Positions 2,834 to 50,746 of a stretch of DNA of 52,172 bases are shown here, in pieces. The stretch lies in NCBI GenBank assembly GCA_043813255.1, contig JBDRLG010000063.1, positions 1 to 52,172 on the forward strand, read 5' to 3'. This stretch comes from Candidatus Omnitrophota bacterium (GTDB lineage Bacteria > Omnitrophota > Gorgyraeia > Gygaellales > Profunditerraquicolaceae). The translations under genes were made by a program, and so were the position numbers. A model generated the notes under the pieces. That model worked only from the letters and a program-made list of their open reading frames with translations. It was not told where the DNA came from and did no database searches. Each line of letters opens with the position of its first letter. The first letter of the stretch is position 1.

Positions 2834-2872
2834 AAATTAATTTATCATACCCCCTCCCTAGCCCTCCACACA

Positions 2873-3004
2873 GAGACTGGGTTAAATGAAATTGTCATCG
2901 ACGAGACTATTTTGTCATCCCCGAATGTTTTAATCGGGGATCTAAAAATCATCGTCGGAGATTCCCGCTTTCGCGGGAATGACACTCCTATTTGACACAG
3001 TCTC
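2873..3004. mobile_element. 132-bp MITE with 15-bp terminal inverted repeats and CACA target-site duplication
   Basis: Left end GAGACTGGGTTAAAT versus reverse complement of right end GAGACTGTGTCAAAT (13/15). CACA at 2869-2872 and 3005-3008. Confidence 0.8.
2913..2984. repeat. REP-like doublet (TGTCAT...ATGACA ended) inside the MITE
   Basis: tgtcatccccgaatgttttaatcggggatct (2913-2943) and agattcccgctttcgcgggaatgaca (2959-2984). Each half is its own hairpin. Confidence 0.85.
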
Positions 3005-3041
3005 CACAAGGAGGAGGGAAGATTAAAAGGATAATGCAGAA

Positions 3042-7993: not shown

Positions 7994-8011
7994 AAATTTT
8001 AATAGCTATAA

Positions 8012-27445: not shown

Positions 27446-27478
27446 TAGAAAAGATCATAGTAGACCAATGGTGAAGCA

Positions 27479-31018: not shown

Positions 31019-31025
31019 TATAGTT

Positions 31026-33562: not shown

Positions 33563-33583
33563 TTTATCGGCATGGAGTAAGAA

Positions 33584-34477: not shown

Positions 34478-34501
34478 GATTCAAGAAGGATTTAGGAGAT
34501 A

Positions 34502-35152
34502 ATGGTTCATCAAAATATTTTAATCGTTGATTATCAATGTGGGAATTTATTTAGTATACAACGCGCTTTGAAGGAAATTGGCGTTTCTTCATTCATTAGC
34601 AGTAGTGCTAATGAAATTCGCGGCGCGGATAAGATAATACTGCCGGGTGTTGGCGCCTTTGGTGATGGTATGGAGAAACTTACATCATTTGGATTAAAAG
34701 ATGCGGTGCTTGCGAGTATCGCCGCCGGACGATACATACTTGGAATATGCTTAGGAATGCAGCTATTGTTTGATGAATCTTTTGAATTCGGCCACTATCA
34801 AGGCCTGCAATTAATCCCAGGCAGCGTGACACGGTTGCGCGAGGAGGGCAGCGCCATAGATGAGAAAGCCGTAAAAGTGCCCCATATCGGTTGGAATGCT
34901 ATTCGTTTTACTCATGAAAAGTATTCCTCACATAAACTTTTTCAAGGAGTGCCTGATGAGACATACATGTATTTTTTACATTCTTTTGGAGTGCGGGCGC
35001 GCCAACAAGAGCATTGCGTAGCAATGACAGAATACGGCGATAATAAGTTTTGTGCTATTGCCTTGCATGAAAATATTATCGGCGTGCAATTTCATCCTGA
35101 AATTAGCGGCCTTTCTGGCCTGCAATTATTAAAAAACTTTGTTAGTGTTTAA
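34502..35152 (+). CDS. HisH-like glutaminase subunit (WbuY type)
   Basis: GNLFS, LPGVGAF, GICLGMQ, PHIGWN, QFHPE (Cys-His-Glu triad). Confidence 0.92.
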   Translation: MVHQNILIVDYQCGNLFSIQRALKEIGVSSFISSSANEIRGADKIILPGVGAFGDGMEKLTSFGLKDAVLASIAAGRYILGICLGMQLLFDESFEFGHYQGLQLIPGSVTRLREEGSAIDEKAVKVPHIGWNAIRFTHEKYSSHKLFQGVPDETYMYFLHSFGVRARQQEHCVAMTEYGDNKFCAIALHENIIGVQFHPEISGLSGLQLLKNFVSV

Positions 35153-35166
35153 TAGAAAAAGGAGAA

Positions 35167-36411
35167 ATGATGATAACCCTGGATAAACAATTACCGAAAT
35201 TACCAAAAAAAATTCAATTTTGTAAAAATTGTGTCGTTTCCAATCAGCGTCCACGCACAGAGTTCAATGAAGAAGGAATTTGCAGTGCTTGTCAGTGGGC
35301 TTATGAAAAGGATCATATTATTGATTGGGAAAAGAGGGAACGGGAACTTCTGGAACTTTGTGATAAATATCGCAGCAGCGATGGGAGTTTTGATGTTGTT
35401 GTTCCCGGCAGCGGCGGAAAGGATAGCGCGTTTGTGGCGCATCAATTAAAACATCGTTATGGCATGCATCCTTTATGCGTGACATGGTCTCCGTTTGAAT
35501 ACACGGATATCGGCTGGCAAAACCTGCAGAATTTTATCCGTTCTGGTTTTTCAAATGTTCTAGGGCAGCCTGACCAGGAAATTCACCGTAAACTGACAAA
35601 ACTTTGCCTGGAACTTGTGGGTGATCCCTGGCAGCCATTTACATTCGGGCAAAAAATGTGGGCATTCCACATTGCCCGTGGGTTTAAAATACCGTTAATT
35701 ATGTATGGTGAAAATGGAGAATTGGAATACGGCGGATCAATAAAATATAAACATTTGCCAAAAGAAGGCCCTGAAGAATACAAAGAACTTTATTTTAAGG
35801 GATCAGATGTTGATGCGATTGTTGATATAGGGATTCAACGCGGCATGTTTGATGTTAAAAAAATTCAACCGCAAACATTTCAACTTTATAAATCGCCGCC
35901 GGTTGAGGATATTATTAAAAGTGGCATTGAAATGCATTGGTATTCGTATTATCATAAATGGACACCGCAGGAAAACTATTATTATGCCGTAGAAAATACC
36001 GGTTTTCAATGCAATCCGGCAGGCAGATCCGAAGGAACATATACAAAATATGTCAGCCTTGATGATAAACTGGATGGTTTTCATTGGTATTTAAGTTATA
36101 TGAAATTCGGGATGGGGCGCGCGTCGCGTGATGTTCAGACGGACATACGCCGCCATCATATCACGCGAGATGAAGGCGTGGCGCTGATCAAAAGATACGA
36201 TGGGGAATTTCCTAAGAATCATTTTCAGTGGTTTCTGCAGTACATGGATATTACTGAAGATTTCTTTTGGGAAGCGTGTGATTTTTACCGTGATATGTCT
36301 AATGTTTGGAAAAAAGAAGACGGAAAATGGGCATTAAAATATATCGCGTCTGAAAACGATGTTTTAGAGAAAAAAACAGCAAATCAAAACGTAAGTGAAC
36401 ATAAATTATAA
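35167..36411 (+). CDS. N-acetyl sugar amidotransferase (WbuX/PseA type)
   Basis: CKNC...CSAC, PP-loop SGGKDS, YGEN, SLDD, KFGMGRA, ITRDEG. Confidence 0.92.
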   Translation: MMITLDKQLPKLPKKIQFCKNCVVSNQRPRTEFNEEGICSACQWAYEKDHIIDWEKRERELLELCDKYRSSDGSFDVVVPGSGGKDSAFVAHQLKHRYGMHPLCVTWSPFEYTDIGWQNLQNFIRSGFSNVLGQPDQEIHRKLTKLCLELVGDPWQPFTFGQKMWAFHIARGFKIPLIMYGENGELEYGGSIKYKHLPKEGPEEYKELYFKGSDVDAIVDIGIQRGMFDVKKIQPQTFQLYKSPPVEDIIKSGIEMHWYSYYHKWTPQENYYYAVENTGFQCNPAGRSEGTYTKYVSLDDKLDGFHWYLSYMKFGMGRASRDVQTDIRRHHITRDEGVALIKRYDGEFPKNHFQWFLQYMDITEDFFWEACDFYRDMSNVWKKEDGKWALKYIASENDVLEKKTANQNVSEHKL

Positions 36412-36447
36412 ATTGGTTTCTATGACTTAAAACCAAGGGGTCATTGA

Positions 36448-37965
36448 TTGGAGTTAACTACTGTGGATAATATATGGATATTTATATTAAATGAAAAAGG
36501 TTTTGCCCCCATAAAAAAGGATAATTTTTTATCTTATGAAGATCTTGGGGTAGCGAAGCTTCTCCCAAATTTTATAGTAAAAAGACTAAAATGTTTTGGT
36601 TTTAGTAATTGCAGTTTTATCGATACACTTGATGAAATTAAAGATTGCGACTGCGGGTTTATTGCAGTCGTTAACATGTCTAATCCATTTATCGACGGAG
36701 AATTATTCTCTAAGATGATGTCTTTGCTTGAAAAATACACTGATTACGATATGTGTAAATGCGAAGGGGCTATTCCGGGCACAGAGCCTGATTTTGTCAT
36801 GCGCACAGGCGCATGGAAAGACAGAGAAAAAAGGCACTTAAAATGTTTGGAAGTACGCCATGATACACAGTCTCGGTATAATTCTCAGGTTAATCTGCGT
36901 AAATTTAAAAGAATCAAGATTTTTAAGGATTTGGTGCAGCATATTGATGGACTTGAACGATTGACAATCGATGAACTAATGTCGCTTTTTAGTTCGGATG
37001 AAGTGTTTCGAAGGATTATATCCTATTGCGAAGATGTTTCTCTTGTGAATTTGTCACGATGCCCGCATTGTGGCGCGGAAATCGAACCGCTTAGGGCAAC
37101 CGTTTCTCAACCGATGATTGGTTTTATTCCCGATATTAAACCATATCATTATCAATGTGTTCATTGTAGTCTTATCGTGGTTTCACCTACCGTAAAAGAG
37201 GAAGAAACATCCATACTCTACGATTTGTATTATAGAGAAGGGCAGGGTCAGAATTATTTTTTAGGAGAACAATCTCGTTATCAGTGTTATGACGCGGCAA
37301 TGAAATTAATAAAGCCGTTGATTTCTGAAAAAACAAAATGCCTTGATCTTGGTTCTGGATCAGGCACGTTTATTTACTATACCCGCGAACATTATCCGTC
37401 ATGGGATGTTACCGCATCGGATTTACCGGATGTATTGAAGTACTTTAAATACCCAAAAGAGATCAAAACAAAGCCTCTTAATTTTTTAAAAGATAACATA
37501 GGTTATGGAGAGCAGGATCTGATTACAACATGGGAGGTTATAGAGCATATTCCGTTTTCTTCTTTTAATAAACTTTTGAAGAACATATACGACGCGCTGA
37601 GATCCGGAGGTGTTTTTGTTTTTTCTACGCCTGATTTTGATTCTCCTTTTTGTCAAGCGTGGGATTTCTATAACCTGTGCCCGCCACATCATCTTTTAGT
37701 ATTTTCAAAGAGTTGGATGTACTCATTTTTTAATGACCACCCCAACTTTGAACTTATTGGGATAACGAGCACTACGGAAGCATTATTACGTTATAAATCA
37801 TGGTTTAAATATTTCGCTTCAACTTCTAAGAATTTTGAAAGCCGGGCACAAGCTAAGCTTTTTCTTGAGATATTAAACGATGATTGTATGCGCGAGTCTT
37901 TTAAGGATCTTTTAGCGCGGAAAAATTGGGGTATGGAGATGATTGTCGCGGTGAAAAAAAAATAA
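36448..37965 (+). CDS. Class I SAM-dependent methyltransferase with Zn ribbon and N-terminal extension
   Basis: CPHC and CVHC, LDLGSGSG, WEVIEH, GGVFVFSTP, PPHHL. TTG start. Confidence 0.8.
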   Translation: MELTTVDNIWIFILNEKGFAPIKKDNFLSYEDLGVAKLLPNFIVKRLKCFGFSNCSFIDTLDEIKDCDCGFIAVVNMSNPFIDGELFSKMMSLLEKYTDYDMCKCEGAIPGTEPDFVMRTGAWKDREKRHLKCLEVRHDTQSRYNSQVNLRKFKRIKIFKDLVQHIDGLERLTIDELMSLFSSDEVFRRIISYCEDVSLVNLSRCPHCGAEIEPLRATVSQPMIGFIPDIKPYHYQCVHCSLIVVSPTVKEEETSILYDLYYREGQGQNYFLGEQSRYQCYDAAMKLIKPLISEKTKCLDLGSGSGTFIYYTREHYPSWDVTASDLPDVLKYFKYPKEIKTKPLNFLKDNIGYGEQDLITTWEVIEHIPFSSFNKLLKNIYDALRSGGVFVFSTPDFDSPFCQAWDFYNLCPPHHLLVFSKSWMYSFFNDHPNFELIGITSTTEALLRYKSWFKYFASTSKNFESRAQAKLFLEILNDDCMRESFKDLLARKNWGMEMIVAVKKK

Positions 37966-37981
37966 ATCAGTAATTTTAACT

Positions 37982-39172
37982 ATGAAAAAAATAAAAATAT
38001 GTATTGTAACAGGATCTCGGGCCGATTATAGCCATCTTCGTTGGCTTATGAAGCATATTCAGGATGATGCCTGTTTTAAATTACAGATTATCGCAACAGG
38101 ATCGCATTTATCTGATGAATTTGGCCTCACAGATAAAGTTATTACGCGTGATGGGTTTTCGGTGTCTGAAAAACTGAATATCTTGAAATATGCGAATACG
38201 GAAATAGGGATGGCAAAGTCAATTGGAAAAGGGTGTGAGTTGTTTGTTGATGCTTTCCGTAGGCTGGTTCCTGATTGGGTTGTTATTTTCGCTGACCGTT
38301 TTGAGATGTTATCCGCGGCTATTGCCGCGTATACATCTAGAATTCCCATCGCGCATATTCATGGGGGTGAAACAAGCCAGGGAGCTATGGATGAGGCATT
38401 CCGTCATAGCATAACCAAAATGTCAAGTATCCACTTTGCCGCGGCTGAGGCCTACCGTAAAAGAATTATTCAGCTGGGAGAAAATCCCAGCAGGGTATTT
38501 AATTACGGTTCTCCGAGCCTAGAGGCTATTTATCAACAAGAATTACTGACTAAAAAAGAACTTAGTAGGGTTTTAGGTTTTGATATATCTGGAACAACCG
38601 CTATTTTTACATATCACCCTGTTACATTAGAAAAAGATCATTCACAGCGTAAATTAGATCAAGCCTTGAAGGCTATAAGCAGTTTTAACTTTAAGGTTAT
38701 TTTTACAAAAGCAAACGCGGATGCATATGGGAATATTATTAATAAAAAGCTATATGAATTTTGTAAAATAGATACTAGTAAATATAAACTTTTTGATTCA
38801 CTCGGGCCTTTGCAATATTTTAGCTGTTTGAAATATTGTGACCTTATGATCGGCAATTCATCAAGCGGGCTTGTTGAAGCGCCGTCATTTCATCTGCCTG
38901 TCGTGAATATTGGTGACCGGCAAAAAGGAAGAATGCGGTCTGGTAATATTATTGATGTTGATTCAAATTATACTGCTATTAGGCGGGGAATTAAGAAGGC
39001 TCTTTCGGCAGGTTTTCGCAGGGCCTTGCAAATTGTTAAAAACCCTCATCAGCGGTTTAAAGATGGAAGGGCGAGTTATCGCATTAAAGAAAAAATCAAG
39101 AAATTAAAATTTAATGAAGAATTTTTGAAAAAAGAATTTTATGATATTGATTTTATTAATACAAACCAATAA
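37982..39172 (+). CDS. neuC: Hydrolysing NDP-HexNAc 2-epimerase (NeuC/LegG family)
   Basis: TGSRADY, TGSHL, DRFE, HIHGGE, DEAFRH, TYHP, GNSSSG, GDRQKGR. Confidence 0.93.
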   Translation: MKKIKICIVTGSRADYSHLRWLMKHIQDDACFKLQIIATGSHLSDEFGLTDKVITRDGFSVSEKLNILKYANTEIGMAKSIGKGCELFVDAFRRLVPDWVVIFADRFEMLSAAIAAYTSRIPIAHIHGGETSQGAMDEAFRHSITKMSSIHFAAAEAYRKRIIQLGENPSRVFNYGSPSLEAIYQQELLTKKELSRVLGFDISGTTAIFTYHPVTLEKDHSQRKLDQALKAISSFNFKVIFTKANADAYGNIINKKLYEFCKIDTSKYKLFDSLGPLQYFSCLKYCDLMIGNSSSGLVEAPSFHLPVVNIGDRQKGRMRSGNIIDVDSNYTAIRRGIKKALSAGFRRALQIVKNPHQRFKDGRASYRIKEKIKKLKFNEEFLKKEFYDIDFINTNQ

Positions 39173-39221
39173 AAAAGTTAATAATGAATGGGAATTAAAA
39201 ACACGGGATTTTTTAAAGAAA

Positions 39222-40289
39222 ATGAAAAATATTAAAAAGATATTTATCAGTCCTCGTTCTTCTCTTAGGCGCGCTATTGAAATTATTCAAAAAGGGGGCG
39301 CGGGAATCGCTCTTATCGTTGATACTCAAGAGAGACTGATCGGAACGGTCACGGACGGAGATATCCGCAGGGCTATTTTACACAAAATTAAATTGAACGA
39401 AAAAATAGGCCGGATTCTTAAGGATAAGCCGTTTAATTATCCTAATTCAGTGGCTGTATCGGTGGACACCCACAGGGAAGATATTTTACGGCTTATGAAA
39501 GAAAAGCTTCTTCGTCATATTCCCCTTCTTGACAAACACAACAAGGTAGTAGATTTGGTGCTATTGTCGGAATTTGTCGAAGAGGAAATACCTCTTCCTT
39601 TAAGTGCTGTGGTTATGGCTGGAGGGCGGGGACAAAGACTACATCCGCTCACTAACGATATTCCTAAGCCTATGCTGCCACTTGATAACCGGCCGATCAT
39701 GGAATGTATCGTTGAGCAGCTGCGAAAGTCAGGCATCACAAAAGTGAATATTTCTACCAATTATAAGTCAGAGATAATTGTTAATCATTTCGGTAATGGC
39801 GATAAATTTGGGGTTGAGATTGATTATATTAATGAGGATCAGCCTTTAGGGACTGCTGGAGCTTTAGGATTGATGGCGCCTCCGGATAAACCGGTATTGG
39901 TTATTAACGGTGATATTTTAACGCAGCTTAATTTTTGCGCCATGTTTGATTTTCATCGCTCTTATAAAGCCATGATGACGGTTGGGGTAAAGAAGTATGA
40001 GATGAGTATTCCTTATGGTGTCATAGAAACAGAAGATGTTATGATTACCGGTTTGGTTGAGAAACCTTTACAGGAATTTATCGTTAACGCAGGTATCTAT
40101 TTGATTGAACCTTCCGTATGCCAATATATTCCTAAGGGGAGCTATTTTAATATGACGGATTTGGTTAATGCTCTTATTAAAGCGAAGCATAGGGTTATCA
40201 GTTTCCCTATTCAGGAGTATTGGCTGGATGTCGGCCACCACGCGAGTTACAATCAGGCGAAGATAGACGTTCAAAATGGTAAGGTGTAG
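39222..40289 (+). CDS. CBS-domain nucleotidyltransferase (PtmE-like)
   Basis: TDGDIRR CBS pair, MAGGRGQRLHPLT, PKPML, PLGTAG, NGD, EKP, WLDVG. Start at ATG 39222. Confidence 0.9.
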   Translation: MKNIKKIFISPRSSLRRAIEIIQKGGAGIALIVDTQERLIGTVTDGDIRRAILHKIKLNEKIGRILKDKPFNYPNSVAVSVDTHREDILRLMKEKLLRHIPLLDKHNKVVDLVLLSEFVEEEIPLPLSAVVMAGGRGQRLHPLTNDIPKPMLPLDNRPIMECIVEQLRKSGITKVNISTNYKSEIIVNHFGNGDKFGVEIDYINEDQPLGTAGALGLMAPPDKPVLVINGDILTQLNFCAMFDFHRSYKAMMTVGVKKYEMSIPYGVIETEDVMITGLVEKPLQEFIVNAGIYLIEPSVCQYIPKGSYFNMTDLVNALIKAKHRVISFPIQEYWLDVGHHASYNQAKIDVQNGKV

Positions 40290-40344
40290 ACGCATAGCAA
40301 GGCTTTAGCCGTAACGCGGCTGTTGTATTTAAAGGATAGTAGAA

Positions 40345-41319
40345 ATGTTTCATAATATTTTTAGTTTAGATCTTATTCTAGATAGAATTATTTTTCTTGA
40401 TGGTCCAACAAGAGCCGGCAAGTTTTTATTGGGAAAGATAGTTTCAAATTTCATGGGGGTTGAATTTTTTCAGTATTCAGCAGCAGTAGAGCATCTACCA
40501 GTGTTTGCCAGATTATCTATAATGAGCGAGAAAGATGCAATTTCTTATTTTAGGCTGCAAATAAACATGGGTGTTTATGAACGTGCAATAGGGCGAAATC
40601 TTAATACAAGAATAAATGATAGTTCTTGCATTAAGAATTCATCCGAAAAAGGCCTGTATTTCGAACGGGCGCATTCGCAAGATGGGCCAAGTGTTTTAGA
40701 TAAATTGCGGATTGAACAACGAATCCCCTCTTTTATTATACATCAGGGAATGGCCGATATAGATTTTTATCTAAAAGCATGCCCAATGTTGAATATGATA
40801 AATATGAGACGGCATCCGGTAGACCTTGCTTATTCTTGGATTAAGAAGGGGTTTGGTATTCGATATGGGAAAGATCCTTTAGTCTTTGAGCCGCTTTTTT
40901 TAAATAAATTTAATAATCCCGTTCCATGGTTCGCATTAGATTTTGACGATGATTTTACAAAAATGTCCGCGGAAGATAAGTGCATTAAGTCAATTTTTTC
41001 TATTTACAAAGCGGATAAAGCAGCATATATGAGGCTAAACGCAGCAGATAAAAAACAGATACTCTATCTTTGCTATGAAAATTTTTTCTCGAGACCGGCA
41101 TCAGTTATAAATACAATTTCAAAATTTATAAAGAGAGAACCGCGTGAAAATATGGATGAAATCCTATTACGAGAGAAGTGTAACGCGCCGATAAAAATAG
41201 AACTAAGGAAGGAAAAGTTTAAAAAACTTAGTTTAAACGCTTCTCCGCAAGTGTTAGATGAGTTAATTGAGATAGCAAAAGAATATGAGAGTGAATGGCA
41301 TCAAGCTTCTTTTTTATAG
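40345..41319 (+). CDS. Putative sulfotransferase
   Basis: 5'-PSB-like IFLDGPTRAGK, 3'-PB-like RRHPVDLAYSW, and YE..FSRP. Lies directly upstream of PAPS synthesis genes. Confidence 0.72.
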   Translation: MFHNIFSLDLILDRIIFLDGPTRAGKFLLGKIVSNFMGVEFFQYSAAVEHLPVFARLSIMSEKDAISYFRLQINMGVYERAIGRNLNTRINDSSCIKNSSEKGLYFERAHSQDGPSVLDKLRIEQRIPSFIIHQGMADIDFYLKACPMLNMINMRRHPVDLAYSWIKKGFGIRYGKDPLVFEPLFLNKFNNPVPWFALDFDDDFTKMSAEDKCIKSIFSIYKADKAAYMRLNAADKKQILYLCYENFFSRPASVINTISKFIKREPRENMDEILLREKCNAPIKIELRKEKFKKLSLNASPQVLDELIEIAKEYESEWHQASFL

Positions 41320-41340
41320 TTAACTATTACAGGAGATAAA

Positions 41341-43503
41341 ATGAAAGTTCTTTGCACTCTAGGCCCTTCAACTTTAAATGAGATATACCTCAGGCGTTTT
41401 TCCGAGATAAAGGTCGATTTATTACGGATTAATCTTTCTCATACTGAATTAGATTCTCTTGAAGATACCATTCTTTTTATCAGGAAACATACCTCTATCC
41501 CGATATGTTTGGATTCTGAAGGAGCTCAGATTCGAACCGGGCGCTTCATGGAAAATGATGTATATCTTGAAGAAAACAAGGTGGTTCAGCTTAATAAAAA
41601 GATGAACGGCGGAACATCAGATGACTTTTCTTTATATCCAGATTACGTCCTTGATAAATTTGAGCTTGGAGATCTTCTAAGTATAGATTTTAATTCTGCT
41701 GTAATTCAGGTTATAAAACGTGATATCGATGGAAATATGATGGCTAGGGTTTTATCTCCTGGAAAAATAGGCAATAATAAAGCAGTAACGCTCGATAGGG
41801 ATATTGGCCTTTTACCGCTAACCGATAAAGATAAAAAGGCTTTGGCCATAGGGCGAAGGCTTAATATTAATAATGTAGCGCTTTCGTTTGCCGGCTCCAC
41901 CGATGATGTTGAGGAAATAAGGAAGCATTGTATTCCCGGTACTTTTGTAATTTCAAAAATTGAATCAAAAAAAGCACTTAATAATTTAGAGCATATTATT
42001 AATTCCTCGAATGCTATATTGATTGATCGTGGAGATTTATCAAGAGAGGTTGGCGTAGAAAATATACCTTATTGGCAAAAACATATTTTGTATACTTCAA
42101 AAAGGCTAAACAGAGAAGTTTATGTAGCAACAAATTTACTTGAATCAATGGTGACTTCGCCGGTGCCGACGAGAGCCGAGGTGAATGATATTTATAATAC
42201 CATGGTTGACGGCAGTGATGGCCTTGTTCTTGCCGCGGAAACTGCTATTGGCAAGTTCCCATTGCAATGTGTTTCAATGATTCAAAGGATGATTCATTCC
42301 TTTGAGGAAAGAAAAACTTCAATCCCGTCTTTGGATTCATCCGTTGTTTCTTTGGCCTTTTGTCCGCCTCATGGCGGAAAACTGGTTTATAATATTATTA
42401 ATCCGGAAAAGGCCGGCAATATCCATAAATTGCCGTCTCTTATTTTATCGGAAGAAGATATTTTGGATTGTGAACAGATAGCAATTGGGACTTATTCTCC
42501 GATAACAGGGCCAATGACGCAGGAAGAACTGAGTTCTGTTTTGAATGATTTGGTATTGCCGGGTGGGCTAGCCTGGACATTGCCAATCATTCTGCAGGTT
42601 TTTAAAAAAGATATTACGAATTTAGGGGATCCGGATAAGGTGTTATTAAGAGATCGGGATGGAAATGCCAAGGCGATTCTAAATGTTAGTCAAATATACA
42701 AATTAAACATGCCGGAGCTTGTCTATAAGTGGTTTGGAACGAATGATTTAAATCATCCGGGAGTTGATAGAGTTATGCAAAAAGGGGATTGGGCAATTAG
42801 CGGTGAGGTATTATTGCTGAATTATCCGAAAACAACCTTGTATGCCGAATATATGCTTACTCCGCAGAAAATACGTTATATATTAGATAAGAAAGGGTGG
42901 ACTAGCGTTGTAGGTTTTCATACGAGGAATGTCCCGCATAAGGTTCACGAATATATTCAATTGAAGGCTTTGGAAAGGACTCTGTCTGACGGTTTGCTTA
43001 TAACCCCGGTCTCCGGGCCCAAGAAACAGGGGGATTTCAAAATAGGCCCGATAATTAAAAGCTATCAGTGGATGATTGATAATGATATTTTCCCGAAAAA
43101 TAAGGCCATGGTATCGTGTTTTAATACTTATTCCAGATATTCAGGCCAGAGAGAAGCTGTGTTCACTGCGCTTTGTAGGAAGAATATGGGGTGTAATTAT
43201 TTCATAATCGGCAGGGATCATACCGGAGTAGGAAACCACTATAGTTCGGTTGATGTAAAAAAAATTTTTAACAGGGTAGGTAATATCGGGATAACACCGG
43301 TATTCTTTGACGAAATATCATTTAATCATGAGGAGAATTTGTATCAGGAAGGCACTTACAGGAATAATAAAAGTATAAGCGGAGCCCAAGCCAGAGAATC
43401 TCTTAAGTTATTTAAAAAGCTGCCTGAGTGGTTTATGCGGGAAGAAATACAGGATATTATTTTTGATCATCTTCGTAAAGATGTTTCGGGAGTATTTTAT
43501 TAA
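41341..43503 (+). CDS. Pyruvate kinase::sulfate adenylyltransferase (Sat-type) fusion
   Basis: Residues 1 to ~325: CTLGPS, RINLSH, IRTG, SKIES, RGDL, LESM, PTRAE, ETAIGKFP. From ~342: PHGGKL, HTRNVPHKVH, RYSGQREA, RKNMGC, IGRDHTGVG. Confidence 0.92.
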   Translation: MKVLCTLGPSTLNEIYLRRFSEIKVDLLRINLSHTELDSLEDTILFIRKHTSIPICLDSEGAQIRTGRFMENDVYLEENKVVQLNKKMNGGTSDDFSLYPDYVLDKFELGDLLSIDFNSAVIQVIKRDIDGNMMARVLSPGKIGNNKAVTLDRDIGLLPLTDKDKKALAIGRRLNINNVALSFAGSTDDVEEIRKHCIPGTFVISKIESKKALNNLEHIINSSNAILIDRGDLSREVGVENIPYWQKHILYTSKRLNREVYVATNLLESMVTSPVPTRAEVNDIYNTMVDGSDGLVLAAETAIGKFPLQCVSMIQRMIHSFEERKTSIPSLDSSVVSLAFCPPHGGKLVYNIINPEKAGNIHKLPSLILSEEDILDCEQIAIGTYSPITGPMTQEELSSVLNDLVLPGGLAWTLPIILQVFKKDITNLGDPDKVLLRDRDGNAKAILNVSQIYKLNMPELVYKWFGTNDLNHPGVDRVMQKGDWAISGEVLLLNYPKTTLYAEYMLTPQKIRYILDKKGWTSVVGFHTRNVPHKVHEYIQLKALERTLSDGLLITPVSGPKKQGDFKIGPIIKSYQWMIDNDIFPKNKAMVSCFNTYSRYSGQREAVFTALCRKNMGCNYFIIGRDHTGVGNHYSSVDVKKIFNRVGNIGITPVFFDEISFNHEENLYQEGTYRNNKSISGAQARESLKLFKKLPEWFMREEIQDIIFDHLRKDVSGVFY

Positions 43504-44039
43504 TGAGAAGGGGTTTAGTATTTTGGTTTACCGGGCTTTCCGGTTCCGGCAAGACAACTGTTGCCCTGAAAGTGAAAAACAGGCTTGAATCTAATAGTTT
43601 AGCCTGTTTGATTGTAGATGGAGATTTAGTCCGCGCGAAACACGTAAAACCTCTTGGTTTTTGCAGAAAGGATATACAGCTTAATAATATTATTATAGCA
43701 GGCCATTGTTTATTAAATAGAGACAATTATGATATAATTCTTGTGCCGGTGATATCTCCGCTTGAGGAGGTCAGGGCATTTGTTAGGAAAAGGCTTACCC
43801 CGAATTTTTATTTGGTTTATTTTTCAGCGGATTTAAAGTCTGTGATCAGGCGGGATGTAAAGAAACTATATCAGAAAGCTCAAGATGGGTTGATTACGAA
43901 TATGATTGGATTTTCATCCGGCTCCCCGTATGAAGCCCCGTTGTCTCATGATTTGATTATAGACAGTTCTGATGGAAGAGAAAGTGTGGATGAATCTGTA
44001 GAAAAATTATATTCTTTTATTGTATCCAAAATATCATGA
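43503..44039 (+). CDS. cysC: Adenylyl-sulfate (APS) kinase
   Basis: WFTGLSGSGKTT, DGD, LGF, ISP, RDVKKLY, PYEAP. Confidence 0.92.
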   Translation: MRRGLVFWFTGLSGSGKTTVALKVKNRLESNSLACLIVDGDLVRAKHVKPLGFCRKDIQLNNIIIAGHCLLNRDNYDIILVPVISPLEEVRAFVRKRLTPNFYLVYFSADLKSVIRRDVKKLYQKAQDGLITNMIGFSSGSPYEAPLSHDLIIDSSDGRESVDESVEKLYSFIVSKIS

Positions 44040-45208
44040 TGAATAAGTTAAAAAATAAAACAATTCCTTTATCGGAGCCTTTTCTGTGCGGGAACGAATG
44101 GAAATATGTAAAAGAATGTTTTGATACCGGATGGGTTTCTTCGTCAGGAAAGTATGTTGAAACATTTGAGAAGATTACTTCCCGTTATGTAGGGCGAAAG
44201 TATGGAGTGGCGTGCGCGAGTTGCACGGCTGCTCTGCACATATCCCTTATTCTCGCAGGTATTGGCCCGGAGGATGAAGTTATTATGCCAGTGTTAACCT
44301 TTGTTGCTCCGGCGAACGCGGTCCGTTATACAGGAGCTTATCCGGTATTTATGGATGTCTGTTTAGGTACATGGCAATTGGATATAGAAAAGGTGGCTGT
44401 ATTTCTAAAAAAGGAATGCCGTTGGGGTAAAGACGGGCTGGTGAATAAGCATACCCGCAGAAAAGTCAAAGCAATCTTGCCGGTACATGTGATGGGCCAT
44501 CCGGTAGATATGGATTCGCTTATGGATATAGCAAGAGAATACGGATTGGCGGTTATTGAGGACGCGGCGGAGAGTTTGGGCGCGGAATACAGAGGTAAAA
44601 AAGTTGGCCGGCATGGGATTTTTGCCTGTTTGAGTTTTAATGGTAATAAGGTTATTACCTGCGGCGGCGGCGGAATGATTGTTGCGGATGATAAAGAACT
44701 TGCTGAACGGGCGCGGTATCTTACTACCCAAGCCAAAGATGACCCAATCGAAAATATTCATGGCGCGGTTGGGTACAATTACCGTTTGACGAATATTCAA
44801 GCCGCAATGGGAGTAGCGCAGATGGAGCAGATTGAGCGGTATATTTTAAAAAAGAGAAAAATAGCATTGTTGTATCGCAAGGGATTGGAAGGTATTCCGG
44901 GGATTATTCATCAGGCTGAGAATCACGGAGTAATGCCTTCTTATTGGTTGTATACGGTGCTTATTGATAATAAATTATACGGCAGAGATAGCCGCGCGTT
45001 GATGTCGGCGTTAAAATCTAACGGTATAGAAGCACGCCCTTTTTGGCATCCGCTTTACAGCCAGAAGATATTTACGGATTGTTATGCTTATGAAATTATT
45101 GCCGCGGATCGTATTTATGCGGACGGTTTGAGCCTGCCTTCGTCGGTTAATTTATCTTTACAGGATCAAAAGCGCGTTATTGCGCTGATCCGTTCAGCCC
45201 AGAGGTAG
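44036..45208 (+). CDS. DegT-family sugar aminotransferase (LegC type)
   Basis: IPLSEP, GWVSSSG, TFVAPANA, EDAAESLG, SFNGNKVITCGGGG, GYNYRLTN. Confidence 0.92.
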   Translation: MMNKLKNKTIPLSEPFLCGNEWKYVKECFDTGWVSSSGKYVETFEKITSRYVGRKYGVACASCTAALHISLILAGIGPEDEVIMPVLTFVAPANAVRYTGAYPVFMDVCLGTWQLDIEKVAVFLKKECRWGKDGLVNKHTRRKVKAILPVHVMGHPVDMDSLMDIAREYGLAVIEDAAESLGAEYRGKKVGRHGIFACLSFNGNKVITCGGGGMIVADDKELAERARYLTTQAKDDPIENIHGAVGYNYRLTNIQAAMGVAQMEQIERYILKKRKIALLYRKGLEGIPGIIHQAENHGVMPSYWLYTVLIDNKLYGRDSRALMSALKSNGIEARPFWHPLYSQKIFTDCYAYEIIAADRIYADGLSLPSSVNLSLQDQKRVIALIRSAQR

Positions 45209-45210
45209 TT

Positions 45211-47313
45211 ATGCTGTGTATTATTGAGAAATTAACCGTGCCGTCACTCTTTATGAATGTTTTCCCGCGATTGAGAGATTTGCGTAAAGAAAGAGCAAGG
45301 GGTAGTTTTTCGGCGTATTACATTGACGCCGCGCCTTGGGCAATCTATTGGGCTAATTTTATTGGCCGGTGTTTAAGAGTTGAATTTAAGCGTTTGGATT
45401 TTCGGTTGATTGATATTTTCGCGGATAATGGTGATTTGGCGTATTTAAAGATTACTTACGCGGATCTTTTTCATATCCTTTCCAGGATTAATCGTTCAGC
45501 CGAATTTCAATTAATTAGCCGAAAGGCCAGCTCTCAAGAAAAACGAATTGTTTTTTTTCTTGCTAAACAGACAATAATTTCTTTTTATCATGACGGAGAT
45601 ATTCTTCGTCGCCTTTTATACTTGGTTTATCTTGCACAATGTAAGGCAAAACAGGATAAAATGCTTTCGCGGCCAGTATGCCTTTTTGTTAAGAAACGTT
45701 TGTGGATGGAAGAAGTGAAAGATTATATCCGTGGTTGGGGCGTCCAGTTGGAGCCTATGCGGATGCGGACTGTTTGGGGATGGAAAAAACTGATTACCGT
45801 TTTTTTCGGTGAAGTAAGGCTTCGTTCGTTGTTGTATCTTTATCGTTGTTATGGTATTAGAACTTTTTTTGCCACCCAATCTTGTTTTGCTGAAGCGAAG
45901 CGTACTGAAGATGCCTTTGTTTTTCCTTACTCCGGTAAAATAAGCCGGTTGATGGTTGAATATAATGGGCATTTAAATATTGATAATCCGCAGATGCATT
46001 CCGACCTTTTTTTTGCTCAGCAATCCGGTTTTCGCAGGGAAGATATTCTTGTCGTGTTTAATTATCCGGGGGACCCATTTGATCAGGCTAAGGCGGATGT
46101 ATTAAAGGCTTTTGGGATGAGCGCAGTTGCGCTTAATCCGAAAGCGACGACGTTTTCTCCCCGAGGCATTTTTCATTATAGCCCTTCGTTTAATTGCCGT
46201 GGGCTTGCCGATATCTCAAACAACCCCGTTAGAATAGATGAAAGTGATTGGTTAAATCTTCAGATGGAGAATTATCGTTCTCAGGCGGCGTACTGGCGCG
46301 CGTTTTTTAAGAGGTTTCATGTTAGTGTTTATTTTTCCTGGTATAAAAATGAAGCTTTGCATGCGGTTATCGCGGATGTCATTCATGAATTAGGCGGCGT
46401 GTCAGCGCTTTATCAGCGGTCGTTTGAAAGCGAGCCTTCTGCCGAAACCGCGGTTAATGTAGATCTCTTTTTTGGTTTTTCAAATGAGGCGGCACAGATT
46501 GAAAAGGCTTCAGGATCCGTGATTCCTTATTATGTTATAACCGGTTATAATGGCGATCACCGTTTTAAGTTTGTTGAGAATAAATCTTTTGAGGTGCGCA
46601 AACAATTATTGAAGAATGGAGCAAAGTATGTTATTGCATTTTTTGATGAGAATTCTAGGCCGGATACCCGCTCGCATACCGGTCATCAGTTTATGCGCGT
46701 GAATTATGAATTTCTTCTTCGACGGGCATTGGAAGATCGTTCATTGGGACTGGTATTTAAACCAAAGGTGCCTAAAACTCTCCGTCAGCGCCTAGGCCAG
46801 GTTGCGGAGTTATTGAAGGAGTTAGAATCTCAAGGCCGGTGTTTTGTGTTTGAAACTGGCGCGGTACAAGGGTCATATCCTCCTGCTGTGGCCGCGAAAG
46901 CGGCCGATGTCGCGGTTCATGGGCATTTGCACGCGGCGACAGCCGGTATTGAATCAGCTTTAGCTGGAGTCCCGACGGTATTTTTGGATAGAGAAGGATG
47001 GCCTTCGTGTTCGCTTTACGCGCACGGTACGGAAGGAAAAATTATTTTTCGCTCATGGGAAAGCCTTTGGCCGAATTTAAGCGGACACCTGAAGCATCCT
47101 GGTAGCGTTCACGGATTCGCGGATTGGTCAGGCCTGTTGGATATACTCGACCCTTTTCGCGACGGCCGCGCGTCCGAACGTATTGGTAATTATTTGTCTT
47201 GGGTTATGGATGGGTTGCGCGCGGGGCATCCCCGTAATCAGGTACTTGATGATGTGGCTCAGCGCTACGCACGGATGTGGGGAAAAGATAAGGTTATCGC
47301 GATCAATGTTTGA
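45211..47313 (+). CDS. Uncharacterised glycan-biosynthesis protein, possible GT-B-like C-terminus
   Basis: 700-aa ORF in the operon. IAFFDE, VFKPK, TAGIESALAGVP, DPFRDGRA resemble GT-B tails. Confidence 0.6.
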   Translation: MLCIIEKLTVPSLFMNVFPRLRDLRKERARGSFSAYYIDAAPWAIYWANFIGRCLRVEFKRLDFRLIDIFADNGDLAYLKITYADLFHILSRINRSAEFQLISRKASSQEKRIVFFLAKQTIISFYHDGDILRRLLYLVYLAQCKAKQDKMLSRPVCLFVKKRLWMEEVKDYIRGWGVQLEPMRMRTVWGWKKLITVFFGEVRLRSLLYLYRCYGIRTFFATQSCFAEAKRTEDAFVFPYSGKISRLMVEYNGHLNIDNPQMHSDLFFAQQSGFRREDILVVFNYPGDPFDQAKADVLKAFGMSAVALNPKATTFSPRGIFHYSPSFNCRGLADISNNPVRIDESDWLNLQMENYRSQAAYWRAFFKRFHVSVYFSWYKNEALHAVIADVIHELGGVSALYQRSFESEPSAETAVNVDLFFGFSNEAAQIEKASGSVIPYYVITGYNGDHRFKFVENKSFEVRKQLLKNGAKYVIAFFDENSRPDTRSHTGHQFMRVNYEFLLRRALEDRSLGLVFKPKVPKTLRQRLGQVAELLKELESQGRCFVFETGAVQGSYPPAVAAKAADVAVHGHLHAATAGIESALAGVPTVFLDREGWPSCSLYAHGTEGKIIFRSWESLWPNLSGHLKHPGSVHGFADWSGLLDILDPFRDGRASERIGNYLSWVMDGLRAGHPRNQVLDDVAQRYARMWGKDKVIAINV

Positions 47314-47354
47314 TTTATTCTATTAATAACAAAGGAAAGGGTTTATTCTCTTAG

Positions 47355-48929
47355 ATGCAAAAGAATATAAATTTGAATGAAGAACAATATCAATCTCTCT
47401 GTGAGGCTTGTGACAGTATACTGACAGCACAGGATTCAACGATCGAACGAATTGCTATTTCATGGCTGCATGTAATTCGTGAACACCCTGTCTTTATGGC
47501 ACATTATATTGATCTTTTTCAACCTAACAATGGCATTATAGCGAATGTTCGTAAATGGTGGCGGGTTTTCCGCCGCCGGGCGGGTTGGGTTAGGCAGTTG
47601 TTGATGTCTATCCAGGTAGGTACCCGTCCATGGTTTGGTCCGGATAATCTCCATGGTAATATCGATGTTTTGTTTATTTCTCATTTGTTGAATCCTTCCC
47701 ATGCAGGCAGAGATGATGATTTTTATTTTGGCAGCCTGCCAAATAAAATAACTGCCCAAGGGTATTCCGCAGTAATCGCTTTGATTAATCATTCCGGACA
47801 GCCTGCCGCGCGTTTCGCGGATAAGTGGGACAGCAGAGTTGTGCAGAGAGTAGTTTTATCCGACGCGCTTAGTTTTTTAGAAGAAGTATCTCTTTATTGG
47901 CGCCTTAAGATGGAATCTTTTAGGTTAAGGAAACTTGCTAAAAAAGAGGGGCAGGGGTTAAAACGGCGTGTTTTTATTCGGGCTTCCGAAGAAACTTTAT
48001 CGGGTAAATCTCTTTCAACTTTACGAATGGCCACGCAGATAGCTTCATTGGCAGTAAAGGTACAGCCGAAAGTAATCGTAGTCATGCATGAGGGGCATGC
48101 GTGGGAACGGGTGTCATTGGCTGCTGTCCGCAGTGCTGTTCCCGAAGTGCGCTGTATTGGCTACCAGCATGCCGCGTTATTTCGCCTTCAGCATGCAATT
48201 AGGAGAAATCTTTCTCGCGAATACAATCCTGACCATATATTCACGGCGGGAACTATTTCTAAAACACAGTTGGACCGCGCGCCAAGACTGAATGGAATTC
48301 CAGTATCTGTGCTGGGGTCCAATCGTAACCTTAAAAATCAGGCGATTAATCAATCCGGGCTTATTTATCCGCGGGCAGCGCGGGCTGATTATCCAGCCTG
48401 TTTGGTAATCCCTGAAGGGTATTTAACCGAATATAAAATTTTGTTTACTTTTGCTTTAGTTTGCGCGGGAATAGCGCCTCAAATTAATTTTATTTTTCGG
48501 GTTCATCCGATTTTGTCATTTGATTCCATTAAAAAACAGGATAAAAAATTTCAAGATCTGCCGAAAAATATAAGACTTTCCAACGTGTCGCTTGAAGATG
48601 ATTTTGCCCGCTGCCGATGGGCTTTATATAGAGGTAGTACCGCGGCTGTGCAGGCAACTCTTTTTGGACTGCGCCCTATCTATTTGGAACTTCCGGGCGA
48701 GTTAACAATAGACCCTCTTTATGAATTGAAGGATTGGCGTTCGGTAATTAAAACGCCTGAGGAATTTCTTCAGGTTATAAAAATATATCCGTATGATAAA
48801 CATAAAGATTTGCAAGAGGCATATCAAAAAGCTCATGACTATTGCGCGCGATTCTACTGCTCTCTAAATGATGCCGCGTTTGTAAAAGAGCTTGCCATGT
48901 TCGCAAGAAAAAAGGGAGAGCATTCATGA
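47355..48929 (+). CDS. Uncharacterised glycan-biosynthesis protein, possible glycosyltransferase
   Basis: EGHAWER, GYQHA, PDHIF, FRVHP, STAAVQA. The HP and ST motifs are as in GT-B nonulosonate transferase-like proteins. Confidence 0.6.
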   Translation: MQKNINLNEEQYQSLCEACDSILTAQDSTIERIAISWLHVIREHPVFMAHYIDLFQPNNGIIANVRKWWRVFRRRAGWVRQLLMSIQVGTRPWFGPDNLHGNIDVLFISHLLNPSHAGRDDDFYFGSLPNKITAQGYSAVIALINHSGQPAARFADKWDSRVVQRVVLSDALSFLEEVSLYWRLKMESFRLRKLAKKEGQGLKRRVFIRASEETLSGKSLSTLRMATQIASLAVKVQPKVIVVMHEGHAWERVSLAAVRSAVPEVRCIGYQHAALFRLQHAIRRNLSREYNPDHIFTAGTISKTQLDRAPRLNGIPVSVLGSNRNLKNQAINQSGLIYPRAARADYPACLVIPEGYLTEYKILFTFALVCAGIAPQINFIFRVHPILSFDSIKKQDKKFQDLPKNIRLSNVSLEDDFARCRWALYRGSTAAVQATLFGLRPIYLELPGELTIDPLYELKDWRSVIKTPEEFLQVIKIYPYDKHKDLQEAYQKAHDYCARFYCSLNDAAFVKELAMFARKKGEHS

Positions 48930-49738
48930 AGGTTATTCTTCTTACGCGTCGGTCAGCGTTCCAAATTTATTGCGCTAACCGGTTATGGAAAAAAGGCCTT
49001 CTTCAGTTGGTGATTTTTGAAAATGGGAACTCATATGCCGGTAACCGCGCTTTTTCCGGAATATCGGATTTTTTCAAAAAGCTGACAAAAGGGTTTGCTT
49101 TGTTATTAAGCAATCCAATCAACATAGTGAATTACGCGGATAAGTATTTGAACCATAAGAAATATTATGGCCATCAAGAGTTTCATAATCAACGATTGTT
49201 AAAAAATAACTATATGGATACAGAAAATGGAATGCCTATAGTAAACGTTTCGGATATAAATTCAGATGAAGTTAATAAAATTATTCAGGAATATAAGCCG
49301 GATCTTGTTTTTGTCTTTGGAACCAGATTAATAAAACCGCATATATTTAAAAACAGGCCTATACCGTTTGTTAATATGCATTGGGGGTGGAGCCCTGATT
49401 ATCGCGCGGAAGGCATTGTGACAGCATTGGCATATGGAGGGCCGGATGCTTTAGGAGTAACGGTCCACCTTTTGAACGCTGGTATTGATAGTGGCGATAT
49501 CCTTTATCAATTAAGGCCGGTTTTAGATGTAAATGACAACTTTTATTCTATCGGTTTAAAGCTTGCTTTACTCGGCATTAAGTTGTTCGCCAAGTGCGCT
49601 GAATCGTTAGGTGAAAACGGATACCTGTCCGGTACCCCGCAGGACCTTTCCGTGAGCGCTTTTTACGGTTCAAAATATATGCGAAAACACGCGGAACTAT
49701 ATAGGATGGCATGGAAGAATTTGCAAAATGCCGTATAG
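48926..49738 (+). CDS. Formyltransferase-family protein
   Basis: PDL, NMHWGWSPDYR, GVTVH, GIDSGDIL. Confidence 0.85.
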   Translation: MKVILLTRRSAFQIYCANRLWKKGLLQLVIFENGNSYAGNRAFSGISDFFKKLTKGFALLLSNPINIVNYADKYLNHKKYYGHQEFHNQRLLKNNYMDTENGMPIVNVSDINSDEVNKIIQEYKPDLVFVFGTRLIKPHIFKNRPIPFVNMHWGWSPDYRAEGIVTALAYGGPDALGVTVHLLNAGIDSGDILYQLRPVLDVNDNFYSIGLKLALLGIKLFAKCAESLGENGYLSGTPQDLSVSAFYGSKYMRKHAELYRMAWKNLQNAV

Positions 49739-49780
49739 CTTATATCAGGGCAACCAGCCCAGCAATGGTCTACTAACATA

Positions 49781-50746
49781 ATGATTAAAGAACACATTAT
49801 GAAAATTTTGGGTTTGCCATTACGCTCCGGCAGAGTGTTTCAGGCAATGTGCAAAGATTCCATATTTATTTTTAATTATCATGAAGTTAACGCGAATCCG
49901 TCGTTATTTACCCGGAAATACAGATTAAATGTTCCGCCTGAATTATTTTCACAGCAGTTAAAATGGATAAAACAATATTTCAATGTAATAAGCCCTGTGC
50001 AGTTAATTGAAAATAAATTTGATTTGCCGGCCGCATTGATAACCTTTGATGACGGATTTGCAAGTACGTTTGAAATAGCCGCTCCTATATTGCGTTCTAA
50101 TAATATTCCGGCGGTGGTATTTATGAATATGGCTCCGGTTGAAGGAAAAATCTTTTGGCCCGGCCTGACAACATATTTATGCTATTACGATAAAGCATTC
50201 CCTGAGTATATGCTTAAACGGCATAATAAATCAGGCCATACTCTTTTTTTATACTGCCGGCAGGAAGAAGTAGATGAATATGTCTCGCGCAATAATGCCC
50301 GAAAAATATATGATGATGCCCGTGCCTATTACGGGACTTTTGCTAATCTTAACCATTTACGCGCGTCTTCGGATTACGGGCTGTTTTTAGGCAATCATTT
50401 ATACAATCATTATAACGCGGCCATACTTACGCCGGAAGATTTAAAGGATTCATATATAACTAATGAAAATAAACTTCGCAAATATTCTAATAATATTAAT
50501 TGTTTTAGTTACCCTTTTGGGCAGCCGCAAACGTGCTATAATGCTCAAACTGACCGCGTAATTTTTTCGATGGGGGCAAAGCGTGTTTTCACTGCTTACG
50601 CTTCGCAAAACAGAGACCCGCATTCTAAACGGCTGCATCGCTTGTCAATGCATGATAATTTAAAAGATGAGCAATCGTTTAAAAACCATGTCGTGATGCC
50701 ATCATTGCTCCATAAATTTTTTCGAAAAAAATATACATATATTTAA
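49781..50746 (+). CDS. Polysaccharide deacetylase (NodB family)
   Basis: YHEV, ITFDDG, GNHLYNH, FSYPFG. Confidence 0.88.
   Translation: MIKEHIMKILGLPLRSGRVFQAMCKDSIFIFNYHEVNANPSLFTRKYRLNVPPELFSQQLKWIKQYFNVISPVQLIENKFDLPAALITFDDGFASTFEIAAPILRSNNIPAVVFMNMAPVEGKIFWPGLTTYLCYYDKAFPEYMLKRHNKSGHTLFLYCRQEEVDEYVSRNNARKIYDDARAYYGTFANLNHLRASSDYGLFLGNHLYNHYNAAILTPEDLKDSYITNENKLRKYSNNINCFSYPFGQPQTCYNAQTDRVIFSMGAKRVFTAYASQNRDPHSKRLHRLSMHDNLKDEQSFKNHVVMPSLLHKFFRKKYTYI

Follow-up and report, generated by a model that had tools for sequence, protein, structure and literature searches.

Why should a pyruvate kinase (PK) barrel share a polypeptide with an ATP sulfurylase (Sat) in the middle of a glycan gene cluster? 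The question is raised by contig JBDRLG010000063.1 of a Candidatus Omnitrophota bacterium (assembly GCA_043813255.1), analysed here over a stretch of 52,172 nt (the window). At 41341–43503 on the forward (+) strand, one uninterrupted open reading frame (ORF) of 720 aa carries a PK A/B barrel, a linker, a PUA_2 domain and an ATP-sulfurylase domain. It lies between a sulfotransferase gene and cysC, which encodes the kinase for adenosine 5′-phosphosulfate (APS). The initial annotation had proposed a dedicated, self-fuelling supply of 3′-phosphoadenosine 5′-phosphosulfate (PAPS) for glycan sulfation, in which the PK remakes ATP from the ADP released by CysC. Judged by sequence, the conserved unit is a sulfation-linked PK paralogue, of which the fusion is one form among several. 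The reading that we favour, with moderate confidence, is recycling of CysC-made ADP driven by phosphoenolpyruvate (PEP), within a cassette for PAPS supply and sulfation.

The fusion ORF is real, and every detail given for it in the initial annotation matched. A Shine–Dalgarno-like AGGAG was read directly at 41331–41335 (+), 5 nt before the ATG. The PK half covers residues 1–325 (41341–42315, +) and consists of the A and B domains with no C domain: the Pfam PK profile matched residues 2–311 (E = 1.2e-59) over profile positions 5–328 of 328, and no match to PK_C (PF02887) was found in the fusion protein. Residues 326–338 (42316–42354, +) form an inter-domain linker predicted to be flexible, and the DNA across it (42290–42380) contained neither a stop nor a frame break. 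The Sat half (residues 342–708; 42364–43464, +) comprises PUA_2 at residues 342–494 (E = 3.5e-38) and the catalytic ATP-sulfurylase domain at 503–708 (E = 1.8e-57). Residue 342 corresponds to nucleotide 42364, the point near which the Sat had been predicted to begin, and all three domains matched above the Pfam cut-offs.

Catalytic motifs are intact in both halves. Aligned with solved PKs, the PK half retained the catalytic R29, N31, S33, D58, R65, K147, K206, E208, D232, T264 and E300. The Sat half contained the motif F-H527-T-R-N-V-P-H533-K-V-H536 and the GRDH loop at 624–627; its best solved relative was 8a8d (E = 4.3e-70), with 2gks at E = 6.7e-51. An AlphaFold2 model built from a 30-row alignment had a mean predicted local distance difference test score (pLDDT) of 87.5 and a predicted template modelling (TM) score of 0.76, and the linker (residues 326–338) was the sole segment with pLDDT below 50. 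In Foldseek, the PK half matched solved PKs at 2.3–3 Å over about 340 columns; the Sat half matched the ATP sulfurylase of Methanothermococcus thermolithotrophicus (8a8d) with a target TM score of 0.92. No solved entry in Foldseek spanned both halves.

The fusion is no one-off and belongs to a large family in several phyla. Of 8000 candidates scored in a word-indexed protein search, 2324 reached E ≤ 0.001. PF00224, PF14306 and PF01747 were present together in 120 of the 120 clusters listed (query included), at 705–761 aa and 47–51% identity; source names among these clusters included Bacteroidota, Verrucomicrobiota, Anaerolineae, Caldilineaceae and Rhodopirellula. A scan of contigs from one genome per species, from which 80 loci were kept, gave 11 full-length fusions (39–50% identity), with hosts including Methylococcaceae, Rhodospirillales, Nitrospina, Pirellulales, Cytophagia, Microthrixaceae and the cultured Mesorhizobium amorphae. 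The fusion was also found on megaplasmids in Sinorhizobium chiapasense and Ensifer adhaerens (46% identity over 99% of the query). In the cultured E. adhaerens, a PK-PUA-Sat gene of 736 aa is directly followed by an APS kinase gene, with a Wzy-type gene near; as this plasmid record is unannotated, its ORFs were called and scanned in this analysis. Publicly, the fusion proteins are named either 'pyruvate kinase' or 'sulfate adenylyltransferase'. Two overlapping frames, of 542 and 326 aa, make up the fusion at the Microthrixaceae locus (L016, 7971–10152), each with part of the Sat half, which points to a frameshift, whether genuine or due to assembly.

Closer to the Omnitrophota bacterium, none of 60 relatives of the same family or order that were searched carried the fusion. 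These relatives had short PKs without a C domain (29–35% identity), and stand-alone Sats were present in three. The fusion is thus sporadic in the lineage, a distribution often seen among genes of glycan clusters.

The same scan yielded 19 loci with the PK half only, at 41–53% identity, a range like that of the full fusions. These stand-alone PK-like genes encode 323–401 aa and occur in Acidobacteriota, Actinomycetes, Thermoplasmata archaea, Desulfobacterales, Gammaproteobacteria and Pelagibacteraceae. Their relation to the fusions was examined with 81 PK barrels in a maximum-likelihood tree from a quick search; a careful tree search was unfinished, and the ordinary PKs in the tree were mostly from Bacteroidota, owing to the peptide pattern used in the scan. 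One clade of 31 rows comprised the 12 fused and 18 stand-alone forms included, without exception, and one degenerate actinomycete sequence (L037). It was separated by a branch of length 1.59 (SH-aLRT, an approximate likelihood ratio test, 100) from 50 ordinary PKs, including a second PK of the same Omnitrophota genome. Fused and stand-alone forms interleaved within the clade: the fused label required four changes, at least three of them forced by well-supported branches.

Six positions distinguish this clade from ordinary PKs, and the Omnitrophota fusion, which lies inside it, has all six signature residues (E60, A62, Q63, D229, N265 and A298). Position 60 was Glu in 12/12 fused and 18/18 stand-alone forms; the 50 ordinary PKs had Gln (44), Lys (4), Glu (1) or Ser (1). 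Position 62 was Ala in 11/12 fused and 17/18 stand-alone forms and Pro in 49 of the 50 ordinary PKs. Gln was found at position 63 in 12/12 and 15/18, respectively, with Lys (45), Glu (4) or Arg (1) in the ordinary PKs. At the remaining positions the ordinary PKs were uniform (50/50): Ala at 229, where Asp was found in 12/12 fused and 18/18 stand-alone forms; Gln at 265, where Asn was found in 12/12 and 18/18; and Ser at 298, where Ala was found in 11/12 and 17/18. The substitutions were ruled out as contacts with the Sat half, because the stand-alone forms have the same residues.

The catalytic residues were kept throughout. Among the 120 listed relatives, R29, N31, D58, R65, K206, E208, D232, T264 and E300 were present in 120/120, S33 in 119/120 and K147 in 117/120. 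Among diverse representatives, nine PK sites were intact in 126 of the 131 that were fully covered, and four of the five exceptions were Thr-to-Ser changes. A PK half surviving as a decayed scaffold was thus ruled out by the invariant catalytic residues; from this pattern of conservation, PK catalysis is under selection throughout the family.

Some individual PK-like sequences depart from this pattern. The PK at L037 (uncultured Actinomycetes, 8001–8966) sits on a long branch, has, in the numbering of the Omnitrophota fusion, K206 changed to Arg, E208 to Asp, D232 to His and S33 to Ala, and is probably inactive. In a relative from the same family (L088, G002:C99), a stand-alone Sat with FQTRN (1481–2632) is followed by a PK-like gene (2652–3455). 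This gene has about 64 N-terminal residues, then a match to residues 161–324 of the Omnitrophota fused PK (42% identity); it seems to be without a B domain and extends into a further region up to the contig end. A similar B-domain gap was seen in P0241 (257 aa).

The genes around the PK gene connect the clade to sulfation. Neighbourhoods were tallied by Pfam on three genes each side of the PK gene, since all-against-all BLAST clustering was too strict for divergent glycan genes; one gene may match both sulfotransferase models, and the two counts are therefore not additive. At 12 fused loci (64 genes), there were 7 matches to Sulfotransfer_1, 4 to Sulfotransfer_3 and 5 to APS_kinase. At 19 stand-alone loci (102 genes), the corresponding numbers were 6, 14 and 7. 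At 24 ordinary-PK loci (143 genes), all three families were absent among the 25 of 88 families listed, and the listed neighbours were housekeeping families, e.g. RNase III, ketoacyl synthase and DinB. Within the fetched loci, a CysC profile matched at 5/11 fused, 8/19 stand-alone and 0/49 ordinary-PK loci; as the profile was built from CysCs of the same loci, the positives are partly built in, and it is the zero of the control that carries information. At six loci (L021, L025, L026, L027, L028 and L035), none of them with a Sat in the fetched stretch, the stand-alone PK-like gene is immediately followed by a CysC-like gene. The search for domain architectures and neighbourhoods that the initial annotation called for thus returned a recurrent fusion, with sulfotransferases and APS kinase enriched near fused and stand-alone PKs alike.

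The CysC-like neighbours are of two sequence types. The first is like the Omnitrophota CysC (WFTGLSGSGK, NN..IA, ISP). The second has WLMGPTSSGKTT and ALTA (L014, L025, L026 and L027) and matches the Omnitrophota CysC much more weakly (1e-14 to 1e-17).

Gene order recurs as protein architecture. A HMMER scan of the PK half against 1.84 billion representatives gave 13608 matches at E ≤ 0.001, and the best 149 of these were classified with the Omnitrophota cassette's own domains as probes. Among these 149, 88 were PK-Sat (many cut by contig ends), 3 were PK-Sat-CysC, 2 were PK-CysC, 55 were PK only by these probes and 1 had two PK matches in one protein. The triple fusions on one chain were P0195, P0208 and P0220; a further one was found at locus L013. 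When ten odd representatives were scanned with Pfam, several had tails of 160–305 aa lacking a Pfam match, one (P0136) was a PK-CBS protein and PK_C was present in none of the ten. In P0261 (1151 aa), a type I phosphodiesterase/nucleotide pyrophosphatase domain (residues 5–382) precedes PK, PUA_2 and ATP-sulfurylase; if this first domain hydrolyses pyrophosphate (PPi) or a nucleotide by-product, it would be another 'pull' module on Sat.

Within its own genome, the cassette stands alone. The assembly has 2.12 Mb in 174 contigs and is 93.75% complete; absence from an incomplete genome is no proof. The Sat half of the fusion is the sole Sat in this genome, the cassette cysC encodes the sole APS kinase above cut-off, and the cassette sulfotransferase is the sole match to PF00685 (Sulfotransfer_1); PF13469 (Sulfotransfer_3) had no match. 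A search of the genome for the PAPS reductase family found none, and the same search was positive in 14/14 control genomes. Searches of the genome for a CysQ-type phosphatase of 3′-phosphoadenosine 5′-phosphate (PAP; PF00459, Inositol_P) and for a SulP transporter also found none. With Sat, CysC and a recognisable sulfotransferase confined to the cassette and the search for a PAPS reductase negative, Sat and CysC are most simply read as enzymes of sulfation rather than of sulfur assimilation, in line with the dedicated glycan-sulfation unit of the initial annotation.

Another PK of this genome, of 344 aa, is encoded on contig C34 (L001:1480–2514, +) and likewise lacks a C domain; PK_C was found nowhere in the genome. 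On TIGR01064 (cut-off 306.4 bits), the C34 PK scored 453 bits and the fused PK half 251.7. The C34 PK is the housekeeping copy, and since it sits separately, the fused PK is an additional, divergent and specialised copy. The C34 gene is flanked by a response-regulator/histidine-kinase gene and a HAMP-HD gene. Similar PK open frames, mostly of 332–367 aa, occur in relatives of the same family or order; a PK without the C domain appears to be a lineage trait.

The Sat half has a peculiarity of its own. Solved ATP sulfurylases (8a8d, 1v47) begin the catalytic motif with FQTRN; in the Omnitrophota fusion the first motif residue is His527, and His was found here in 120 of the 120 clusters listed. 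Among fused genome loci, His was present in 10/10 (nine by a strict pattern and L006 by a looser one), and L010 fitted neither pattern. Stand-alone Sats had Gln in 9/9 cases, three in Omnitrophota relatives and six in five genomes with a stand-alone PK-like gene. A tie of the His variant to the presence of any PK-like gene in the genome was ruled out by the latter, as all six Sats in these five genomes have Gln. One fused representative (P0133) had Gln together with an altered GRDH loop. In the available part of PMC3779200, Gln199 of A. vinosum, in the 'highly conserved QXRNXXHXXH motif', hydrogen-bonds APS sulfate oxygens; His527 could still be able to donate a hydrogen bond to sulfate. The other Sat residues (RN, HxxH and GRDH) were retained in the 120 listed relatives, with R625 and H627 in 120/120 and D626 in 116/120. 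The Sat half passed the Pfam cut-offs and stayed below the curated cut-offs of TIGR00339 (293.3 vs 322.95) and NF003166 (324.4 vs 387).

Not all members keep an intact Sat. Seven Sat core residues were checked in a careful alignment of the 75 representatives in which 300 or more residues follow the PK half: 45 were intact, 2 had one site changed, 21 had two or more changed and 7 were gapped. The Omnitrophota fusion is one of those in which neither half is degenerate. In a degenerate class (e.g. P0134, P0142 and P0148), the RN, HxxH and GRDH residues are lost and the PK half is intact; these fusions may be pseudo-enzymes retained for binding or assembly.

How, then, would the cassette work? The Sat half would convert ATP and sulfate into APS, CysC would phosphorylate APS to PAPS with release of ADP, and the PK half, as a paralogue without a C domain, would use PEP to rebuild ATP locally from that ADP. 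In sum, sulfate, ATP and PEP would yield PAPS, PPi and pyruvate. Removal of ADP would prevent a dead-end CysC–ADP–APS complex and, via CysC, would pull the unfavourable Sat step, with PEP serving as phosphoryl donor for the kinase step. What the sequences show directly is the domain architecture, the conserved catalytic residues, the recurrent genomic association and the dedication of the cassette to sulfation; PK activity, ADP as the acceptor and a physical or local coupling with CysC we infer. ADP recycling is favoured because the PK site is intact, because the link to CysC persists where no Sat is nearby and because PK-CysC and triple fusions exist. It is also favoured because PAPS synthesis in vitro stalls without PK and PEP: in the portion of PMC9885120 available, ADP accumulated and PAPS was nearly absent when this regeneration was left out, which its authors attribute to a dead-end complex of APS kinase, ADP and APS. 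Of the ADP recycling put forward in the initial annotation, the predicted association of PK with CysC was observed; the changes at the rim of the PK site and the His of the Sat half were not predicted by it. The term 'self-fuelling' was overstated, as PEP is consumed and the ATP turned into APS by Sat is not recovered.

Several observations weigh against ADP recycling. The six signature positions lie beside catalytic residues, are fixed in the subfamily and are each shared by at most one of the 50 ordinary PKs; they could mean another cation requirement, acceptor or chemistry. The fused PK half also fell below the curated cut-off of TIGR01064 and of all pyruvate-kinase NCBIfam models. Nor does the model predict the exchange of the sulfate-binding Gln for His. 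Within the stretch fetched, a CysC-like gene was present at only 6 of 12 fused loci (the Omnitrophota one included). As the Sat is degenerate in 21 of 75 representatives, hand-over of ATP to an active Sat in cis is not a general rationale for the fusion. Finally, the genome already has a housekeeping PK, and the benefit would have to come from a second, local one. A modified activity is a real possibility given the rim substitutions, the sub-threshold scores and the His variant, as is a regulatory Sat-type domain given the pseudo-Sat class.

Next to ADP recycling, the strongest rival is a PK half that is catalytic with a changed job, i.e. one that uses PEP with another acceptor or cation regime, such as another nucleotide of the PAPS/PAP cycle. 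We regard this as possible, at clearly lower probability. It would account for the rim positions (11–12 of 12 in fused and 15–18 of 18 in stand-alone forms), for the long separating branch and the sub-threshold NCBIfam scores, and for the fixed His in the sulfate pocket of the fused Sat. The failure to find a PF00459 PAP phosphatase in the genome points the same way, but is weak evidence at 93.75% completeness. However, the ligands of ordinary PKs for PEP, metal and nucleotide phosphates are all kept, the simplest acceptor beside CysC is ADP and no alternative substrate is indicated.

A bolder form of the favoured ADP recycling is somewhat less likely still. Here PK paralogue, Sat and CysC would make up a PEP-driven PAPS synthase with directly coupled active sites, a third natural way to pay for sulfate activation next to PPi hydrolysis with the pull of APS kinase and GTP hydrolysis by CysN. 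The rim changes and the Sat His would then reflect either hand-over of the nucleotide without release or an acceptor of the PAPS/PAP cycle other than free ADP. The predicted complex of the fusion with CysC, computed with a separate alignment per chain and no controls, scored 0.00 against a mark of 0.32, a value that carries no weight for or against binding.

Mutual regulation is an unlikely primary role. The Sat-type domain would replace the PK C domain in oligomerisation or ligand sensing (with APS, PAPS or sulfate as the proposed ligands), or PEP binding would gate Sat and so tie sulfation to carbon status. Consistent with this, the Sat half occupies the place of the absent allosteric PK_C, the 21 of 75 Sat halves that lost at least two of seven core residues beside an intact PK look as expected of a binding domain, and the PK-CBS relative P0136 carries a typical ligand-sensing module. 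However, the Sat residues are intact in the Omnitrophota fusion and its 119 closest relatives, and as the genome's only Sat it must be catalytic if the cassette is to work. Such regulation is compatible with ADP recycling, and the two are not mutually exclusive. Ordinary assimilatory sulfate reduction with an incidental or artefactual PK fusion is very improbable: Sat and CysC would also open a PAPS-dependent assimilation route and the assembly is fragmented (174 contigs), but the PAPS reductase search that succeeded in all 14 controls found none here, the genes sit in a glycan cluster beside a sulfotransferase, and the fusion is not an artefact because it recurs in 119 other clusters listed and on complete replicons of cultured rhizobia.

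The remaining genes of the cassette fit a sulfation context. The upstream ORF at 40345–41319 (+, 324 aa) is a sulfotransferase and the presumed consumer of PAPS; its match to Sulfotransfer_1 is weak (E = 6.4e-7) and above the Pfam cut-off (29.5 bits vs 22), as the initial annotation of a sulfotransferase-like gene had it. Its sequence contains a PTRAGK loop and an RRHPVDLAYS stretch, which we take to lie where the 5′-PSB and 3′-PB PAPS-binding motifs are found. Downstream, cysC (43503–44039, +, 178 aa) matched Pfam APS_kinase at E = 5.6e-34 (117.8 bits vs a cut-off of 21.1) and has the P-loop GLSGSGKTT and VDGD (DGD motif); on TIGR00455 it scored 127.8, slightly below the cut-off of 138.7. Its ATG and the TAA of the fusion overlap by one base (TAATG), exactly as first described. 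A DegT/DnrJ/EryC1-type sugar aminotransferase gene follows at 44036–45208 (+; Pfam, E = 1.2e-102) and overlaps the end of cysC by four bases.

The window as a whole is a large, almost wholly co-directional glycan cluster. It includes NeuB, a cytidylyltransferase and a WbuX/HisH/HisF-type amidotransferase set, as well as a UDP-GlcNAc 2-epimerase, a CBS-nucleotidyltransferase and the DegT aminotransferase. A block of nonulosonic-acid type at 26513–36411 (+) encodes an RmlD-like reductase, a GFO/IDH/MocA oxidoreductase, a cytidylyltransferase, a short-chain dehydrogenase/reductase, NeuB, a PHP-domain protein, an ATP-grasp protein and an epimerase, and ends with HisF-like, HisH-like and WbuX-type N-acetyl sugar amidotransferase genes. 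A candidate acceptor of the sulfate is a modified nonulosonic acid or amino sugar. Right after the DegT gene, two ORFs (45211–47313, 700 aa; 47355–48929, 524 aa; both +) had no Pfam or NCBIfam match; each could encode a glycan polymerase, a transferase or a membrane protein belonging to the cluster. The forward strand holds 44 of the 48 distinct ORFs of at least 150 aa, an unusually long co-directional block, and GC skew was above zero in all 2-kb windows of the 52,172 nt. A promoter scan of 36000–50000 gave 45 hits (shuffled mean: 41.3) and a terminator scan 11 (shuffled mean: 12.4), which is not above shuffled sequence.

What is new here is an unrecognised and widespread PK component of a sulfate-activation/PAPS system, with Sat and CysC parts of known type. 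The literature search, with subscription journals, supplements and architecture databases outside its scope, found no description of a natural fusion or of a sulfation-linked PK, and nothing pairing QTRN with ATP sulfurylase. The available parts of 10.64898/2026.04.11.717937 and PMC8100219 do not mention the fusion. The initial annotation knew of no characterised example, and the searchable full-text literature agrees.

Sulfate activation is uphill, and the textbook solutions are PPi hydrolysis, the pull of APS kinase and the GTPase of CysN. If ADP recycling is true, the cassette would add PEP to the energy sources for sulfation, and glycan sulfation would be tied to central carbon flux. Carriers of the PK paralogue are spread over many bacterial phyla and also include Thermoplasmata archaea, and under current database labels metabolic reconstructions may miscount glycolytic PKs. 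The cultured carriers E. adhaerens, S. chiapasense and M. amorphae make the family directly testable. A natural single-chain module would also be at hand for PAPS biocatalysis, in which PK and PEP are added by hand, as in the available part of PMC9885120.

Among known systems, the bifunctional Sat/APS kinase (2gks, NF004040) is alike in having Sat and a partner that aids the unfavourable APS step on one chain. Here, however, the partner is an N-terminal PK barrel and CysC is a separate, overlapping gene; on NF004040 the fusion scored 226 against 669 bits. Ordinary PKs (PykF/PykA; TIGR01064; 1pky, 7oo1 and 5wrp) share the A/B barrel fold and all catalytic residues. The fused PK differs from them in lacking the C-terminal allosteric domain, in its identity of about 30–35%, its separate clade and six substitutions, and in its sulfation gene neighbourhood, where ordinary PKs have a housekeeping one. 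Stand-alone Sats (8a8d; 1v47 of Thermus thermophilus) have the same PUA_2 and catalytic domains and the same RN, HxxH and GRDH residues at about 34% identity, but carry Gln where the fused Sat has His at the first residue of QXRNXXHXXH. CysDN/NodPQ are alike by analogy, in that a second energy-rich substrate drives sulfate activation; their fold is unrelated and the energy comes from GTP hydrolysis by CysN. The closest parallel in chemistry is the engineered PAPS cascade: in PMC9885120, as far as the available part goes, PK and PEP remove ADP and restore ATP, as proposed here. That cascade is an in-vitro mix of unrelated commercial and human enzymes, whereas the Omnitrophota cassette and its relatives have a natural, dedicated PK, fused or adjacent.

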